The notes beneath the pieces are model-generated. The model was not told where the DNA came from and did not search any database. It saw only the letters and a list, made by a program, of their open reading frames with translations. This document shows, piece by piece, positions 1 to 7,484 of a stretch of DNA of 32,000 bases. Positions within the stretch are counted from its first letter, which is position 1. Each line of letters starts with the position of its first letter. Origin of the DNA: an uncultured Lentisphaeria bacterium (GTDB lineage: Bacteria; Verrucomicrobiota; Lentisphaeria; JABSQK01; JAJFLO01); NCBI GenBank assembly GCA_951812855.1, contig OX638337.1, positions 540,001 to 572,000 on the forward strand, in the 5' to 3' direction. The position numbers and the translations under genes were made by a program.

Positions 1-353
1 AGCAGTTTAAAACTCTGGATAAATGAAAAATCTGAACGTCGTTGCCATTCATATAACATTAATATAAAGGGAAGAGTTACAGCAATAGATTTGGAGAATA
101 AAGCCAATATAAAAAGAAAGAAAGGTCCCCAGTACGACTTTCCCAGCTTATTTGGAGATAGTTTTATAAACCAATATAAAGCCCAAATATAAAATGCTGA
201 GCAGAGTACGTCCTTCCGTTCAGAAATCCAAACCAAAGATTCAACTCGTTGTGGATGGATGATAAAAAGGATTGTTAAGAGCAGGGATAAAATTGGTCGG
301 ATACCAACTAAAGTAAAAACACAATACAATCCAACCGCGGTTAAACTGAACCA
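1..353 (-). pseudogene. 5'-truncated membrane glycosyltransferase-like gene of the PMT_2/DUF1736 + TPR ('TMTC-like') type; continues past the window start
   Basis: Not in the ORF track because it runs off the edge. My minus-strand translation is ...FSLTAVGLYCVFTLVGIRPILSLLLTILFIIHPQRVESLVWISERKDVLCSAFYIWALYWFIKLSPNKLGKSYWGPFFLFILALFSKSIAVTLPFILMLYEWQRR... The HP..ES..WISeRkD...FY and SK..A.TLP pattern is typical of this family. It parallels 6901-7362 (FLLHPLATQSITYICQRYTSLAALFYIYALY). The N-terminal TM + FxFDD segment is missing. The frame stays open to about 575 without an ATG and there overlaps a methylase remnant. Confidence 0.5.
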
Positions 354-481
354 CCCCCTAAGAAAGGCGAATAGAACACTTTGGTTTCTTGTGGAATAAA
401 ATTTGATACCTCCATTACACCACGAGATTTGCCACCTGCATATCTCAAAGGCGATCTTGGCTCTCTTTTCAATATCATCAT
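341..481 (-). pseudogene. N-terminal remnant of a D12-class (Dam-like) N6-adenine DNA methyltransferase
   Basis: A 46-codon ORF below the track cutoff. My translation is MMILKREPRSPLRYAGGKSRGVMEVSNFIPQETKVFYSPFLGGGSV*. It carries the family's N-terminal (W/Y)xGGK motif and an (E)PFxGGGxV AdoMet motif I, then stops; full enzymes are several-fold longer. Its ATG overlaps the TGA of an upstream decayed frame (...KPKKGGAKQ*), an operon-like ATGATGA junction. Confidence 0.55.
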
Positions 482-673
482 TGTTTTGCACCGCCTTTTT
501 TAGGTTTGGTTGTTTTGTTTTTGGATGCGGGTTTGGGTTTTGCCGGAAATTTTTGGCAGGATGATTTTACTGAATGCGTCTTTGTTGATTACGGTAAGAA
601 TTGTACCACTACAACCTTTCTTAAGTTGTATTTGACCTACAATACTTTTTAACAATACAAGCAAAGTCTCTGA

Positions 674-956
674 CTAAAATAAATTAGAATTGATAACATG
701 AAAACCTGTTGAGCACACAGTGCGTTTTGAAAAACGCCCATCAAAAATCCGCACCCCCGCCGCGCGACTCTCTTCCACCGCATCATGTGGCACCAACACA
801 TAACGCCAGGGGCTTGCCGCTGTTGGCCTGTAAATAATCGCTGGCAGTTTGTTCGTCTTGCTCAATGGCAATTTCTACGGCTCGCCTGGCACATTCTAAT
901 AAATGCTTGGATTGTTTTCGCAAGATGTAAGGATTGGGTGATTTGGCGCGGTGTTA
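674..956 (-). pseudogene. Decayed C-terminal remnant of a foreign, visibly G+C-richer gene; possibly a helicase-type restriction subunit tail (uncertain)
   Basis: The track ORF 674-871 starts on TTG right after a stop. A second frame upstream reads ...KHLLECARRAVEIAIEQDEQTASDYLQANSGKP and joins by a 1-nt shift to WRYVLVPHDAVEESRAAGVRIF... The segment around 740-860 is clearly more GC-rich than its surroundings. The 'W.Y.L(V/I)PH..(V/I)' tail reminds me of C-termini of type I/III restriction helicase subunits. I cannot verify this without a search. Confidence 0.25.
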
Positions 957-2198
957 TTATGGCCTATCAAACTCAAAAATTGATTTTAATAAGCCTTGAT
1001 TATGGTAGGTTATTTTTTCAATTTTTCGCGGTTCGGTTGTGTAAAACGCATCTTTTGAATTAATTGCTTTGATGTGATGTGTTTTGTCAATGTTAGAAAA
1101 CGTTGCTTTATTTGGGTCTATAGCTAAAACAACATTCTTATTTTGATTGCGAGAAAATTCTTTGTGTGTGTTTTTGTGAATGTAAATTAAGTTTAAATGA
1201 TCATCTATCAATCTCGCTTCTGCTTTGTTACGGGCTAAGGCGATGGGGATAATGTGGTGCAGTTCAAATCTTGGCTTTTTTGCGACTGAATGAAAGAGAA
1301 AGTATTCTCTTTTTCGAATGGGACTTCTTTGCATTGTTGGTCGGAAAAATCCTGTTTTTCCCGTATTGAGGCGGAAGCCTTTATTGACCTCGACCTGAAA
1401 ATAGACGGTGGTCTTGAGCAGAGTCATTATTTGCTGTGATTGATTTTTCCAATTATGAAAATCTCGTTTTTCGGTTTTGTCGCCTGAAAAATTATTCGGG
1501 TCGGCGTATTTTTTTAATAAATGAATGACTTTTTTGTGTTGGTCTTTTTTCAGTACACGGTAGGAGCTTAACAATTCTATTTTGTCTAAATTTTCATTAT
1601 CATCTGATAAGATAAACATAAGCTCATAAATGCTGATTATCTCGGTTCTGTAATCGCTGCGGCTTATCACTTCTGCTAGGTGTGAAATTTTATTTCCAAA
1701 GAGTTTGTCTATAGCTTTGGTGAATATGTGATATTCTTTAATCAAAGAACTTGTCTTGATAAATTCAACTGCGCTTGGTGTCAATTGTCCGTGCAGAGTT
1801 TTTCTGTTAAAACTAGCTGGCCTAATTTTTTCTCTTTTCAAAAAACCCATTTTGTCTAAATCAGGAAAAAAGTTCTTTTTGAGAGAATTAATGGTGCCTT
1901 TTCCTATTTTTTCATTAACTCTGCCAACAATTTCTTTGTATTGTTCAAAATCTGTTTGGAGGTCGATATCTTTTTTGTAATCGCCGGGAGGAATTGCAAA
2001 TAGATTTTTGCCAACGACACCGTAAATGGCAGTTAATATCTTTTTGATATCGTCCATATCATATCTGTTATGTTGCGAAACATGCCAGCCGCGATAATTC
2101 TCTTGCTGCACTCGGTTTGTTATGTATTGTAGAAAAAGATTGTTTTTGTCTATTGACAAAATATCGTGCAGGATTTTATCAGGCTCTCTTGTGTCCAT
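957..2198 (-). CDS. HNH-motif nuclease, candidate restriction endonuclease of the adjacent methyltransferases
   Basis: 413-aa ORF. Its C-terminal region FELHHIIPIALARNKAEARLIDDHLNLIYIHKNTHKEF fits the HNH pattern (E.HHI.P ... D..NL ... H...H). No Walker A motif is present. The start overlaps the upstream methylase stop by 20 nt, and a GAGG lies about 12 nt upstream. Confidence 0.7.
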   Translation of the reverse strand: MDTREPDKILHDILSIDKNNLFLQYITNRVQQENYRGWHVSQHNRYDMDDIKKILTAIYGVVGKNLFAIPPGDYKKDIDLQTDFEQYKEIVGRVNEKIGKGTINSLKKNFFPDLDKMGFLKREKIRPASFNRKTLHGQLTPSAVEFIKTSSLIKEYHIFTKAIDKLFGNKISHLAEVISRSDYRTEIISIYELMFILSDDNENLDKIELLSSYRVLKKDQHKKVIHLLKKYADPNNFSGDKTEKRDFHNWKNQSQQIMTLLKTTVYFQVEVNKGFRLNTGKTGFFRPTMQRSPIRKREYFLFHSVAKKPRFELHHIIPIALARNKAEARLIDDHLNLIYIHKNTHKEFSRNQNKNVVLAIDPNKATFSNIDKTHHIKAINSKDAFYTTEPRKIEKITYHNQGLLKSIFEFDRP

Positions 2199-2985
2199 TT
2201 TTTCTTGCCTCGCTTAATTTATTCCTGGCTATTTTTACATAATCCTTTTCTATGTCACAGCATAGAAAATTTCTATTTAATTTTTGGGCGACTACGGCGG
2301 TTGTGCCGATGCCAGCAAAGCAATCTAAAACTATATCCTCTTTATTTGAACTTGCTTTAATGATTCTTTCTATCATTTCTATTGGCTTTGGCGTTAAATG
2401 CTGCAATTTTTGCACTTTGCCATTGACTTTACTTTTGTGTCTTTCGCTTGTGATATGCCAGACTTCGCCACAAAGGCGGCCTTTTTGATTTGGGAACCAG
2501 CGCCTTCCATTTTTCAAAATACCTTTTTTTTTCGCGTGTTCAATCCTCTCTTGTGATTCGTACGGCACGCGCACATCATTATAGTTAAAAACATGCTTTT
2601 TATTTTTTGTAAAAAACAGGACTGTTTCTTGTCCGTTACTAAAACGCCTTTTTGCGCCACCCATGCCATCTCGCTTATCCCAGGTTATCCAGTTCCGAAA
2701 ATGTAAACCTTGACTGACAAGATATTGTAAAATAAAAGCTGAATTGTAAGGCGTATTGAATATATAAAGACTCCCATTTTCTTTTATCTTTGGGATAAGT
2801 TCATCTATCCAGGCGTAAGTAAAATTAAAAAAATCATTCTCTGACTTGAAAGTATCCCAGTTCGCTTTACGCATATTGTATGGTGGGTCAATGACAGCCA
2901 GGTCTGCTATATCATTATCTAACTGTTCTAAAAAATTAAAACAGTCCATTTGATATATTTTGTTTAGGGCAATATCCTTTGACAT
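2179..2985 (-). CDS. Beta-class N6/N4 DNA methyltransferase (DPPY motif IV; probably m6A)
   Basis: 268 aa. Motif IV is AVIDPPYN near the N-terminus; motif I is DCFAGIGTTAVVA near the C-terminus (N6_N4_Mtase order IV...I). An RBS GGGGAGA precedes the ATG. It overlaps the neighbours by 22 and 20 nt. Confidence 0.9.
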   Translation of the reverse strand: MSKDIALNKIYQMDCFNFLEQLDNDIADLAVIDPPYNMRKANWDTFKSENDFFNFTYAWIDELIPKIKENGSLYIFNTPYNSAFILQYLVSQGLHFRNWITWDKRDGMGGAKRRFSNGQETVLFFTKNKKHVFNYNDVRVPYESQERIEHAKKKGILKNGRRWFPNQKGRLCGEVWHITSERHKSKVNGKVQKLQHLTPKPIEMIERIIKASSNKEDIVLDCFAGIGTTAVVAQKLNRNFLCCDIEKDYVKIARNKLSEARKNGHKRA

Positions 2986-3896
2986 GTGTCTCCCCTGTTT
3001 AGATTAGATTTAGCCAATGCTATCTTTTTGTCTATTAATTTTTTATAGCTTGTCATTATTTCGTAGCCGATGAATTTGCGTTTTTCTTCTTTTACGACCT
3101 TCAAAGTTGTCCCACTGCCTGCAAAGGGATCTAAAACGACATCACCAACATAGGTAAATAATTTGACGCACCGGCGGACAATTTCTTCTGGCATTATTGC
3201 GCTGTGCTCGCCAAAGGCGGAGTCTTGCCTGCCAGGGATGGGTATTCGCCAGATTTGTTTGGTGTACTCAGTCCATTCTTTCTCGCTCAGTGCACTGGCT
3301 TCTTTTATTGCTTTTGATGGGCGGTCAGGCTGGCCATCTTTTACATAGACAGTAATAAATTCGCTGGTATTTTGTGCATAAAAATTTCTTGGGTAAGGAT
3401 AACTGCCAAACATCAACCTTTTACTTGAGTTAGTTCGTTCCCAAATATAAACATCATATAAAAATATTTTGGTGTTTTTTTGTCGCAAAATTGAATGTTG
3501 AATGTCGGCGTTTAAGTCAAAGATATGCCTGTTGTAATGCGTTGAATATTGTGCTTTTTTCATGGGAACAAGCGGAGTGTTGATGACCATTTTGCCGTTT
3601 GGTTTCAATACTCGCTCGCATTCATTCCATACTTTTAGCAGCTCATGAATAAATGCATCATAGTCATTTATATCGCCAATTTGTTTTTTTTGTTTTTCGC
3701 CGTTGCTGTTTTTTTGGTACCCGTCTTTTGCGTAGTCTTTTGTATTGTAATATGGCGGTGATGTAATAACTAAATCAACTGCATTATTTGGTATTTCGCT
3801 CATATTTTGGGCGTTTTTGTAAAACACTTTGTCCCAAAAAACTGCTTCGCAGGCTGATTTATTGGCGGCGGGAAGGTCGGAGATTTCTTCAAACAT
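2964..3896 (-). CDS. Beta-class N4/N6 DNA methyltransferase (SPPY motif IV; possibly m4C)
   Basis: Motif IV is LVITSPPYY; motif I is DPFAGSGTTLKVV at the C-terminus. The track ORF extends to 3974, but that extension overlaps the conserved C-terminus of the upstream gene. I prefer the ATG at 3896 (MFEEISDLP...), which overlaps the upstream stop by 8 nt. Confidence 0.88.
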   Translation of the reverse strand: MFEEISDLPAANKSACEAVFWDKVFYKNAQNMSEIPNNAVDLVITSPPYYNTKDYAKDGYQKNSNGEKQKKQIGDINDYDAFIHELLKVWNECERVLKPNGKMVINTPLVPMKKAQYSTHYNRHIFDLNADIQHSILRQKNTKIFLYDVYIWERTNSSKRLMFGSYPYPRNFYAQNTSEFITVYVKDGQPDRPSKAIKEASALSEKEWTEYTKQIWRIPIPGRQDSAFGEHSAIMPEEIVRRCVKLFTYVGDVVLDPFAGSGTTLKVVKEEKRKFIGYEIMTSYKKLIDKKIALAKSNLNRGDTCQRILP

Positions 3897-4371
3897 AATA
3901 GTTTTTTTCTTTGCGGTGATAGTGAGATAGTTGCCTGCCATTCGTCCACACGCCAATCGGGGCACCCGTGGCATTGCAATAAGAACGTAATTGATTTTTG
4001 CCGTCTTGGAGCTTCGGTTTTTTCAGTTCAACAATAATAAACGGCGTATCGGGGCGATCTTTGTCAAAGATGACAATATCTGCACTTTTCTTTTCCCTGC
4101 CAAAATTAACTGTATGTTCAAAAGCCAGGCGTTCTTTAGGATAGTTATACTCGTTAATAAGCCGTGAGGCATAGAGTTGGCGAACGACTTCTTCGGGTTT
4201 TAGCTGAATATCTTTTTCTCGAATAATGCACTTTACATAAGGCGTTTCTTTGCCCTTGGCTGCTTTGGCGAACACTCTTTTACGCAATAGCTCTATTTCT
4301 TCAACTGAGAATAGCGACAAACTGTATTTGGCATCTTTTAGAATGGTTTGTATGATGTCTGGTTGTGGCAT
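3889..4371 (-). CDS. Stand-alone HsdR N-terminal-domain (PD-(D/E)xK nuclease fold) protein
   Basis: 160 aa. EEVVRQLYASRLINEYNYP...SADIVIFDKDRPDTPFIIVELKKPKLQDGKNQLRSYCNATGAPIGVWTNG matches the HSDR_N pattern (E..VR..., aDIv...p..ivE.Kk, Ql.sY, g.wTNG). It is the first gene of the four-gene operon. Confidence 0.75.
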   Translation of the reverse strand: MPQPDIIQTILKDAKYSLSLFSVEEIELLRKRVFAKAAKGKETPYVKCIIREKDIQLKPEEVVRQLYASRLINEYNYPKERLAFEHTVNFGREKKSADIVIFDKDRPDTPFIIVELKKPKLQDGKNQLRSYCNATGAPIGVWTNGRQLSHYHRKEKNYYV

Positions 4372-4420
4372 TGTTTTTTGTTTCTTTGTTTTATATATTT
4401 GTCTTAATACTGTAACCGTT

Positions 4421-4603
4421 TTACCGATTCAGTTTAGCATTACATTGCTCGGTCTTTGAGTTTGGGTTAGTTTTTTTGATTTTTTCTTTGAGTATGTCAA
4501 ATTTTTCTGGCTGGAGAATATAGTTTTCGTATTTTGCTTTATTTTTTGGTTTGGATAACAATATTTCTTTTAGGGCTTTTTCTATTTTTTTTATAATTGT
4601 CAT
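4421..4603 (-). CDS. Hypothetical small Lys-rich protein upstream of the R-M operon
   Basis: 60-aa ORF with no recognisable motif, same strand as the operon and about 50 nt upstream of it. It may be non-coding. Confidence 0.2.
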   Translation of the reverse strand: MTIIKKIEKALKEILLSKPKNKAKYENYILQPEKFDILKEKIKKTNPNSKTEQCNAKLNR

Positions 4604-4805
4604 AATGATTTTGAATAAGGTAATGATTTAATATAGTCTTCCATTCCAATTTGGCGGTGTTATCCAATACATAAATGTGGTCATCCCATCGGTTAAGAAA
4701 GTCAAACTTCAGAGTGCCTGAATAAGTTACCATGGTGGCAACTACAAGCATTATTCTATTGGAAAGAATATTAACTTTACTGTTTTTGATACTAATCCCC
4801 CTCAA
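4539..4805 (-). CDS. Hypothetical protein or gene fragment
   Basis: 88-aa ORF overlapping the 60-aa ORF by 65 nt in another frame, with no recognisable motif. It could be a frameshifted remnant. Confidence 0.2.
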   Translation of the reverse strand: MRGISIKNSKVNILSNRIMLVVATMVTYSGTLKFDFLNRWDDHIYVLDNTAKLEWKTILNHYLIQNHYDNYKKNRKSPKRNIVIQTKK

Positions 4806-4925: not shown

Positions 4926-5417
4926 ATGGGGAAAAACCGCAAAAAGAAGTTTACACTGATTGAGCTCCTGGTTGTGATAGCTATTATCGCTATCCTGGCC
5001 GGTATGCTCTTACCAGCGTTAAGTAAAGCTCGTGAAAAAGCACGTCGTATCAACTGTTCTGGTAACTTGAAACAGATCGGATTAGCATTACTGATGTATT
5101 CCGGTGACTATGACGGCTTCTTTCCAAATGATCAGACTTTTGCAAGTAACAACCTCGAAGTTTTAAACTCCAATGGATATCTTGCTAATGGTAAAGTATA
5201 CGGTTGTCCCAGCCTTACTAACGTATCGTCTGTAGCATCAAACATGGATTATATCTATGTTGGTTCTGGTCTTAAAGATGATAATGATAATCCTGCTGAT
5301 AATTCATTAGCCTATGATGCAAAAGATAACCATCCTGAAAACGCATGGATGAATATTCTGTTCATCGACGGTCACGTTGCCGGTCAAAAACCAGGTACTG
5401 GCGGAATGAATAACTAA
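4926..5417 (+). CDS. Prepilin-type N-terminal cleavage/methylation domain protein (DUF1559 / H-X9-DG-like pseudopilin)
   Basis: The N-terminus [36 protein letters not shown] is the class III signal plus hydrophobic helix. The C-terminal NILFIDGHV resembles the H-X9-DG family ending. A strong RBS AAGGAG lies upstream and a terminator follows. Confidence 0.9.
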
Positions 5418-5609: not shown

Positions 5610-7484
5610 TCAGGTATTCCTGTGACACAATCGCACCATAGTTAGACGTCTGGTTACAATGGAACACGGCTTTTTCAAAATTAGCAATTTAGCAATATTA
5701 AAATAAGCCTGTGAAATTCTTAAATGTGCTGATGCATAACCGGGAAATACAGTTAATACCTCTTTGTATTCGAAAATAGCCTCTTCAAACTGTTTAGTGC
5801 TGTCGAATACCATTGCTTTATTTAAATGAATAATTGCAATTTCCTCTCTATTCATAGAAAATCTCAATGCCTTGCCATAGTAATCGAGAGCTTTGTGTGT
5901 GGCAATTTCATGTTACTGTACACAGTGCCCAGATTCGAATAAGCATGTGCACTGAACGGACTGATTTTAATAGCTTTACCCAACGATTTGATTGCTTTCT
6001 GCCATTTCTTTAACAGAGGCATAGGCATTCCCCAAATTGTAGTAAACATAATAATCATTTGGAGTCAAATGGGATAGAGTCAAATATGTGTCGATTAGTT
6101 TTTGCATGTCATCGAGATGGGTATACGCTCCAATTAAATTTTTGTAAATTTTGGGATCATTCGAATTGATATATTTTGCTCTGTTAAGTTCAATCAGGGC
6201 TTCTTGAATATTTCCTTGTTTTATCATTGTTCGTGCAAGTCGAACATAAGCCCCTGAGTAATCTTTGTTGAGTTCAATAAAATTTTTATACTGAATAACC
6301 GCATCTGAATACTCTCCTTTTTCATGATAAATATCGCCCAGTGCCTAAATAGGGTCGATCTTTTTTCGGAGACTTAATCAAGGCATCTTTCCAAAGTGAA
6401 TAGTCACTTTGCCAAACGTAATTACGTTTTACAGTTAAAATTCCTAAAATTACGATCGCCGGCAAAATAAAAATTAATTTAAATAATTGCTTTTCTATTC
6501 GTTTAATAATTTCAATGAAACTAAAAGACAATCCAATTAATGGCAGATATAACCGGTGTTCAGCGACAATGATCGTACTGGGAACGACACTTGATGTTGG
6601 AATGAGTGTAATGAAAAACCACAAAATTCCGTATCCGAGAAATGGCAGTTTCTTTGAACATAATACAGCCACAATAATTAGAGTAAGGATTACTAAAAAG
6701 GAAGATAAGACCCGGGGTGTCATGAAATTATCTCGTATAACATATAGTGATCAAAACTTTGTTTGACCGGACATACCAGCAGCTGAAGACAGGCAGTACA
6801 TATCGTTTCAATTTGAGTATAAAAATAGTTTTCGTGAGTAATATGATTATCGGAAAGCTGATTGGAAATTCTTTTGTCAACAATGCTAAAATCAGAAAAA
6901 TTATCGATAAACTATACCGTAATATATAATGAAAAAACCTGCTGCATCATTTCTCTTATTCTGAATGATGGCATTTATATAAAAGTAAAGTGCATAGATA
7001 TAAAAAAGTGCTGCTAAAGAAGTATAACGCTGACAAATGTAGGTTATGCTTTGAGTTGCTAAAGGGTGAAGTAGAAAAATCAGACTGCAAATGACGGCGA
7101 TAAAAAATTTGCTTTCTTCATTCTCTCTATTTCTTGTTGACAGTATTTCACATATTAAAAGAAATAGTCCGAATGACGTCACGATATGAATAACAGTGTT
7201 GACTATATGAAAACTTCGAACATCATTTCCCCAAATAAATAGATTTACGGCAAAGCTCAAATGGGCAATAATTCGCTGAGGTGATTTACATTTGTTAAAG
7301 GCTTCATCAATGCTGAGATCAGCGATAACGTGATGATCATCAAAAATAAATGGAGAATCCATCGTATTCCAGTACAGGGAAAAGCAATAACAAAAAATAG
7401 CAGAAACGTTCCCAATGAACTGTTTATTTCTATATTAAAGGGCAACACTATTTTGTTAGTCTTTTGAATTGTACATTCTGACAA
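5610..7484 (-). pseudogene. Multiply frameshifted TMTC-like gene (PMT_2/DUF1736 membrane domain + C-terminal TPR repeats)
   Basis: Six track ORFs in different frames tile one gene-length locus:
- 7257-7484: N-terminal TM helix ...LGTFLLFFVIAFPCTGIR.
- 6901-7362: DSPFIFDDHHVI...LLHP...
- 6724-6900: my shifted-frame piece ...QIETICTACLQLLVCPVKQSFDHY.
- 6322-6723: ...AEHRLYLPLIGLS...RNYVWQSDYSLW.
- 5976-6227, 5864-6058 and 5610-5867: TPR-like pieces (e.g. YYNLGNAYASVKEMAE, AHAYSNLGTVYSNM).
At least six frame disruptions are present. Confidence 0.7.

Follow-up and report, generated by a model that had tools for sequence, protein, structure and literature searches.

Here, we describe a restriction-modification (R-M) locus on the minus strand of a 32,000-nucleotide (nt) stretch of DNA from an uncultured Lentisphaeria bacterium (contig OX638337.1, positions 540,001 to 572,000; the whole stretch is called the window below). 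The locus contains four overlapping open reading frames (ORFs). To the following reading we assign a probability of about 0.9: three of the ORFs, M2, M1 and R (window 947–3854), represent one compact type IIS cassette that replaced the interior of a resident operon, which was composed of an endonuclease-methyltransferase (RM) gene, a DUF4145 gene and a specificity-subunit (S) gene. Judged by its sequence, the fourth ORF, which encodes 160 amino acids (aa), stems from the 5′ end (the first ~154 codons) of a 686-aa endonuclease-methyltransferase gene; it is not a member of the cassette.

The ORF listing of the window confirmed the four minus-strand ORFs, which overlap one another successively by 8, 22 and 20 nt, and the motifs quoted in the initial annotation are present as described. 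The 160-aa ORF is located at 3889–4371; it carries one HSDR_N_2 domain, whose PD-ExK core (ADIVIF...IIVELKK) is encoded at 4018–4083. M2, the SPPY methyltransferase (DLVITSPPYY), is located at 2964–3896; it is 310 aa in length from the ATG used in the initial annotation, and its longest possible ORF extends to 3974. M1, the DPPY methyltransferase (LAVIDPPYN), is 268 aa in length (2179–2985), and R, the predicted HNH type IIS endonuclease (ELHHIIP...DDHLNL...HKNTH), is 413 aa in length (957–2198). Because strong homologues were found for all four, none of them is judged to be a chance ORF.

The M2-M1-R cassette family

A scan of a genome collection gave 66 related cassette loci, many of which come from Helicobacter pylori. 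M2, M1 and R lie in this order on one strand in 56 of the 66; the cassette hosts include Gammaproteobacteria, candidate phyla radiation (CPR) bacteria, Bacteroidales, Clostridia and Helicobacter. The other ten loci lack M2 and usually also M1, and they lie mostly on contigs that are short or cut off at an end. DNA similarity among the cassettes runs from the start codon of M2 to the stop codon of R. The window holds an HNH endonuclease, an M1.MboII orthologue and a second methyltransferase of the SPPY type, in the order M2-M1-R. By homology, genes 2–4 are thus classed as an MboII/HpyAII-type type IIS R-M cassette, an uncharacterised member of a known family. The family matches of M1, M2 and R bear out the R-M locus proposed in the initial annotation. 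The arrangement, which had been taken for an undescribed one, is that of the MboII/HpyAII system.

The 160-aa protein had no tblastn match in any of the 66 cassette loci. Searching the six-frame ORFs of the same loci and their flanks (up to 6 kb) with the HSDR_N_2 family profile (hmmsearch E <= 0.01) also gave no match, and in 50 of the 56 complete loci the sequence upstream of M2 is longer than 700 nt. Likewise, no fusion of HSDR_N_2 to N6_N4_Mtase was present among the cassette loci. A four-gene system with two nucleases, as first suggested, is not what these loci contain, since the 160-aa gene is found in 0/66 of them.

R aligned end-to-end with the PADLOC REase_II model PDLC03506 (positions 5–413 of 416, E 3e-69). 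In Pfam, R obtained one sub-threshold HNH_2 match only (E 0.024); NCBIfam has no model for R, and the PDB sequences gave no match even at E 10. R.MboII is reported to be 416 aa in length, and the REase_II model has 416 positions. We found 593 homologues of R, which are ~415 aa long. Across 31 aligned homologues there is no variation at E312, H315, D332, N336 and H345 and hardly any at H314; the HNH motif (H314, H315, N336 and H345) is encoded at 1164–1265. As determined by BLASTP, R shares 34% identity over 388 residues with one 423-aa H. pylori protein (E 8e-63), which has HH at 328/329, N350 and H359. The HNH spacing is identical in the two proteins; H315 and N336 are 21 residues apart, and N336 and H345 are 9 residues apart. 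Among plasmids, the search matched only Helicobacter suis and H. ailurogastricus homologues, which are annotated as type II restriction endonuclease.

R.HpyAII is a type IIS HNH enzyme, which recognizes GAAGA and cuts 8/7 nt away (PMC7494987). In the R.HpyAII study, H328, H329, N350 and H359 were mutated, and cleavage depends on the HNH residues; the purified protein alone cleaves duplex DNA and prefers two-site substrates (PMC7494987). Orlowski and Bujnicki 2008 (PMC2441816) assigned the MboII family to subtype S of the HNH superfamily. By homology, R is classed as a single-chain HNH endonuclease of the MboII/HpyAII family. Homology to R.HpyAII, with the same HH...N...H spacing, supports the original view of the 413-aa protein as an HNH nuclease. 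The same homology disagrees with the companion proposal that each of the two nucleases cuts one strand, because R.HpyAII cuts duplex DNA alone (PMC7494987).

Both methyltransferases belong to Pfam N6_N4_Mtase (M1, E 4e-62; M2, E 2e-47). M1 aligned with M.MboIIA (PDB 1G60) without gaps; 167/253 residues (66%) are identical (E 7.5e-123). Its identity to the H. pylori counterpart is ~53%. By homology, M1 is a beta-class orthologue of M1.MboII and is predicted to produce N6-methyladenine (m6A) in GAAGA. M2 matched the PADLOC MTase_II model PDLC03353 (E 2e-86) and is ~59% identical to the H. pylori orthologue that occupies the M2 position beside R.HpyAII; the solved structures nearest to it include N4-cytosine methyltransferases. 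The HpyAII system consists of M1 (m6A, GAAGA), M2 (N4-methylcytosine (m4C), TCTTC) and an HNH R (PMC7494987). M2 is classed as a beta-class enzyme orthologous to M2.HpyAII and M2.MboII, with m4C predicted on the TCTTC strand. In the initial annotation, the DPPY and SPPY proteins had been proposed as the m6A/m4C pair of one asymmetric type IIS site, one enzyme per strand; this pairing agrees well with the MboII/HpyAII homology. The site is most likely GAAGA/TCTTC with 8/7-nt cleavage, as predicted from the 66% identity of M1 to M1.MboII alone.

The 160-aa ORF and its parent gene

The 160-aa ORF belongs to Pfam HSDR_N_2 (E 7e-28) and matched positions 8–159 of the 672-position PADLOC MTase_I model PDLC03034 (E 2e-60). 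In an exhaustive search, its best relative was one 700-aa protein, with 70% identity over residues 1–159; other relatives are 1100–1200+ aa in length (up to 1210). In these 700–1210-aa relatives HSDR_N_2 is followed by N6_Mtase/Eco57I, and the best solved relative of the parent RM proteins is RM.BsaXI (PDB 8W0P, E 1e-23). The 160-aa ORF aligned with the nuclease end of RM.BsaXI, and the triad D98...E115-x-K117 matched. The PD-(D/E)xK core reported for this ORF is therefore real: D98, E115 and K117 are conserved, and no lack of catalytic residues was seen. The conservation is explained by the origin of the ORF, which copies the 5′ end of one intact 686-aa sister-strain gene.

We considered the possibility that the RM gene carries one recurrent truncation hotspot, for which the word-indexed search, with matches of <=276 aa only, had spoken. 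The candidate was rejected, because the exhaustive search found the full-length relatives of 700–1210 aa. The short matches are mostly contig-end or frameshift fragments.

In other genomes, relatives of the RM gene are frequently broken. In L068 (6001–8068), the relative is in three pieces of 254, 167 and 220 aa. In L069 (6001–8093), it is in two pieces (209 and 500 aa) that overlap one another, and one S gene follows them. L070 and L071 (6001–6543) contain one 180-aa RM stump, which ends in ...NYFEEIT, within 10 codons of the breakpoint in the window; small genes follow this stump, and one of them has a weak Gp49 (toxin-antitoxin-like) match.

The intact allele and the junctions

By exact-sequence look-up of the neighbouring pilin-like gene, we located one intact allele in the same metagenome (L073; ENA sample ERZ18545485, contig ptg000035c, 1.94 Mb). 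The intact operon (L073 2323–6444) encodes one 686-aa RM protein (HSDR_N_2, N6_Mtase and Eco57I), one 205-aa DUF4145 protein and one 479-aa S protein, and it occupies the same chromosomal site as the cassette of the window. Residues 1–154 of the 160-aa protein are identical to those of the 686-aa RM protein. The ORF is thus a truncated copy of the 686-aa gene, which speaks against its having been added as a modification-dependent nuclease or sensor, the other role first considered for it.

In the blastn comparison of L072 with L073, the flanks are 99.4% identical from window position 3870 onward and 97.1% identical at 946 and below; three indel blocks (11, 42 and 1 nt) are counted in the latter figure. 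Window 947–3869 (2923 nt), the incoming M2-M1-R segment on the minus strand, has no counterpart in the intact allele. It stands in place of 3461 nt that cover the RM interior, the DUF4145 gene and S. The breakpoints, 946/947 and 3869/3870, are exact against the intact allele; otherwise they are placed within about a dozen bases or fewer.

The other end of the old operon is also retained. One S-gene 3′ remnant (944–783, minus strand) begins 12 nt past the stop codon of R; it consists of 53 codons plus stop and encodes the last 53 residues of the specificity subunit. In tblastn, the C-termini of the L068 and L069 S subunits matched it with 73% identity over 34 aa (E 2e-12, at 929–828). Compared with the end of the intact 479-aa S, it differs only at 926/928 (two differences) and at 812 (one).

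Like the S side, the RM side contains one short diverged patch. The alleles differ only sparsely in the flanks, and not at all in window 3908–4588; 14 differences, the 4-nt insertion described below included, are clustered in 3873–3907, and together with the two at 926/928, these are the junction differences from the intact allele. The junction patch of diverged RM-homologous sequence spans 3855–3907 on the minus strand. One of its changes, CCCG to AAAA, gives a run of seven A residues (A7) at 3902–3908, in place of which the intact allele has GACCCGAAC. The A7 run is on the coding strand, 6 nt upstream of the M2 ATG and within the end of the stump ORF. Compared with L068–L070 and the intact allele, 4 extra nt (TATG, minus strand) are present at 3894–3897 between the NY and FE codons. 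This insertion supplies the stump with its TGA and M2 with its ATG. The 8-nt ORF overlap is therefore a scar of the junction, since one 4-nt insertion creates the stop codon of the remnant and the start codon of M2.

The reading frames agree with this placement. RM homologues read ...HYHRKDPNY and then FEDITDIPKANQSL..., whereas the stump of the window reads ...HYHRKEKNYYV-stop. Past the stump, the M2 frame reads MFEEISDLPAANKS and then M2; RM homology continues in this frame for 13 codons (FEEISDLPAANKS), and the protein alignment to homologues at the junction is NYFEDITDIPKANQS. We also examined the A7 run as the frameshift site; it was ruled out, because the alignment puts the frame change at the 4-nt insertion after the NY codons.

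Comparison of N-termini with homologues indicated that M2 lacks its native start codon. The native N-terminus of M2 homologues, MxxDFLNKVFYKNAQ, is replaced in the window, where the protein reads ...ACEAVFWDKVFYKNAQ. Cassette homology begins at about F20 (3839). After the start at 3896, no further M2 ATG occurs before residue 32.

Proposed origin and working of the locus

According to the proposed model, M1 would methylate adenine N6 on one strand and M2 cytosine N4 on the other strand of one asymmetric site, most likely GAAGA/TCTTC. The single-chain HNH R would recognize the same site and cut both strands at a fixed distance (8/7 nt in MboII and HpyAII), and it probably acts through transient dimerization on two-site substrates, by analogy with HpyAII and FokI. 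The three genes of the cassette are presumed to be active.

The cassette would have overwritten the interior of a BsaXI/BcgI-like, type IIB-style operon (RM, DUF4145 and S), of which the 5′ 154–173 RM codons and the last 53 S codons would be the survivors. The replacement may have proceeded by homologous recombination with a donor that already held the cassette inside a related RM-S operon; such a donor is suggested because short diverged RM- and S-like patches are present at both junctions. Having lost its own start, M2 would now be read from the ATG at 3896 created by the insertion. The cassette is presumably transcribed from the old RM promoter upstream of 4371, since the incoming segment brings no upstream sequence and leaves no space for its own promoter. 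Searches of the locus detected no flanking direct or inverted repeats marking a mobile unit, beyond chance-level short matches, and no transposase or integrase.

Several observations weigh against this reading or parts of it. The remnant ORF keeps an intact start and the nuclease triad, so residual function is possible. The window shows no avoidance of GAAGA (69 sites, compared with 64.8 +/- 9 expected), and its sequence gives no independent support for the specificity or the current activity of the system. R is only 34% identical to HpyAII, so that its specificity may have shifted, and the MboII likeness of R and M2 was judged via the H. pylori proteins, not via the R.MboII and M2.MboII sequences. 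In the promoter and terminator scans the counts equal the shuffled expectation, which leaves expression from the old promoter as an inference only.

Alternative explanations

The remnant may have been co-opted, either as one leader that is coupled through the ATGTTTGA overlap and sets the M2 level, or as one free accessory PD-(D/E)xK domain. The insertion does put the in-frame M2 ATG exactly at the stop of the remnant, with no other ATG before residue 32, and the cassette has no upstream sequence of its own. However, the remnant DNA (3908–4371) is identical to the intact allele and bears no sign of independent evolution; similar dead fragments are found in L068 (the three frameshifted pieces) and L070/L071 (the 180-aa stump), and no other MboII-type cassette needs such a leader. 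We regard co-option as unlikely. More doubtful still is the broader proposal that the stump is not inert, in which the promoter, the 160-aa ORF and the ATGTTTGA overlap would set the M2 level and hence the M/R balance, or loss from A7 would yield one active PD-(D/E)xK::m4C-methylase fusion.

Alternatively, the 160-aa ORF and M2 may be one HSDR_N_2::m4C-methylase gene that was split by assembly error or is rejoined in a subpopulation by loss of one A at A7. Loss of one A from A7 would join the 160-aa ORF in frame with M2 (...HYHRKEKTIMFEEISDLP...), and T7 RNA polymerase is known to slip on A/T homopolymers in mboIIM2 (PMC4417176). Against this, the frame differs from that of the homologues through the 4-nt insertion and not through an error in homopolymer length, and a run of seven A residues is short for efficient slippage. 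The 160-aa and the 413-aa protein each occur, with exactly the same sequence, in the records of 3 contigs, and the cassette loci hold no such fusion. One split gene is thus highly improbable.

A heteromeric type IIS/IIT enzyme that divides the cutting of the two strands between the 160-aa PD-(D/E)xK protein and the 413-aa HNH protein can hardly be maintained: although the four ORFs overlap on the same strand and the intact D98...E115-x-K117 triad aligns with the nuclease domain of RM.BsaXI, the small gene is missing from all of the related cassettes, R.HpyAII needs no partner to cut duplex DNA, and the small ORF is the 5′ end of the 686-aa gene of the sister allele, ends at the frameshift scar and is matched by the S-gene 3′ end on the other side of the cassette.

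Neighbouring genes

Downstream of the cassette, one gene is present as two ORFs of 343 and 128 aa, compared to the single 495-aa ORF of the sister allele. One 46-aa ORF, MMILKREPRSPLRYAGGKSRGVMEVSNFIPQETKVFYSPFLGGGSV (window 341–481, minus strand), matched the first 34 positions of Pfam MethyltransfD12 (E 2.6e-4, 21.3 bits, with a cut-off of 22); it may be what is left of a Dam-like methylase. In another frame, the membrane/TPR gene called at window 491 and below overlaps this ORF with its 5′ end.

One membrane-plus-TPR gene family is found in pieces at window 5610–7362 (minus strand) and at window 1–491. On the other side of the cassette, the fragments are 153 aa (6901–7362), 133 aa (6322–6723), 83 aa (5976–6227), 64 aa (5864–6058) and 85 aa (5610–5867) in length. 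The split membrane/TPR genes suggest ongoing pseudogenization in this ~1.95-Mb genome. One 88-aa ORF (4539–4805, minus strand) has FLNRWDDHIYVLDN, which resembles the N-terminus FIFDDHHVIADL of the 153-aa fragment; it may be a further stump of the membrane family beside the R-M block. The plus-strand ORF at 4926–5417 encodes one 163-aa protein, in which a prepilin-type N-terminal methylation motif is followed by the N-terminal segment of DUF1559 (SBP_bac_10). Proteins that combine the two are typically those of Planctomycetota, Verrucomicrobiota and Lentisphaerota.

Significance and comparison with known systems

The system itself is ordinary and matters little for new biology. Its value lies in being a clear natural case of one R-M system overwriting another, with both alleles in a single metagenome, in which the incoming methylase gene took over a start codon from the remains of the old gene. 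It also advises caution in annotation; one small 'HsdR N-terminal domain protein' beside an R-M cassette can be a pseudogene fragment and not a subunit.

Several H. pylori HpyAII cassettes are disrupted: L039 has a shortened R ORF, M1 and R form one read-through ORF in L062, and the M or R matches are split in L063 and L066. These disruptions fit the phase variation and decay that have been reported for the HpyAII system.

The closest known system is HpyAII of H. pylori 26695, which has the same three proteins, the same M2-M1-R order and the same HH-21-N-9-H motif. Different from HpyAII, the cassette of the window resides in another host, its R is moderately diverged and the N-terminus of its M2 is foreign. 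H. pylori copies are often phase-variable or frameshifted, whereas all three cassette ORFs of the window are intact. Like the predicted system, MboII of Moraxella bovis has two methylases acting on GAAGA/TCTTC, and M1 is 66% identical to M.MboIIA over the whole length.

The old operon is comparable to BsaXI/BcgI-like systems, since the parent of the 160-aa ORF has HSDR_N_2 plus N6_Mtase/Eco57I and a separate Methylase_S partner. Different from those systems, the intact allele has one DUF4145 gene between RM and S, and the window keeps only ~154–173 RM codons and the last 53 S codons. With no N6_Mtase sequence and only 53 S codons left, the window itself does not hold a type IIB or type I-like RM+S system.

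Allelic substitution of one R-M system by another has already been described (Furuta, Abe and Kobayashi 2010, PMC2853133). There, likewise, the flanks are shared and unrelated R-M systems occupy one locus, which bears no transposase, integrase or flanking repeats. Different from that pattern, both alleles coexist here in one metagenome sample, and the breakpoints fall within genes of the old system, where each end has a short diverged patch of homology.

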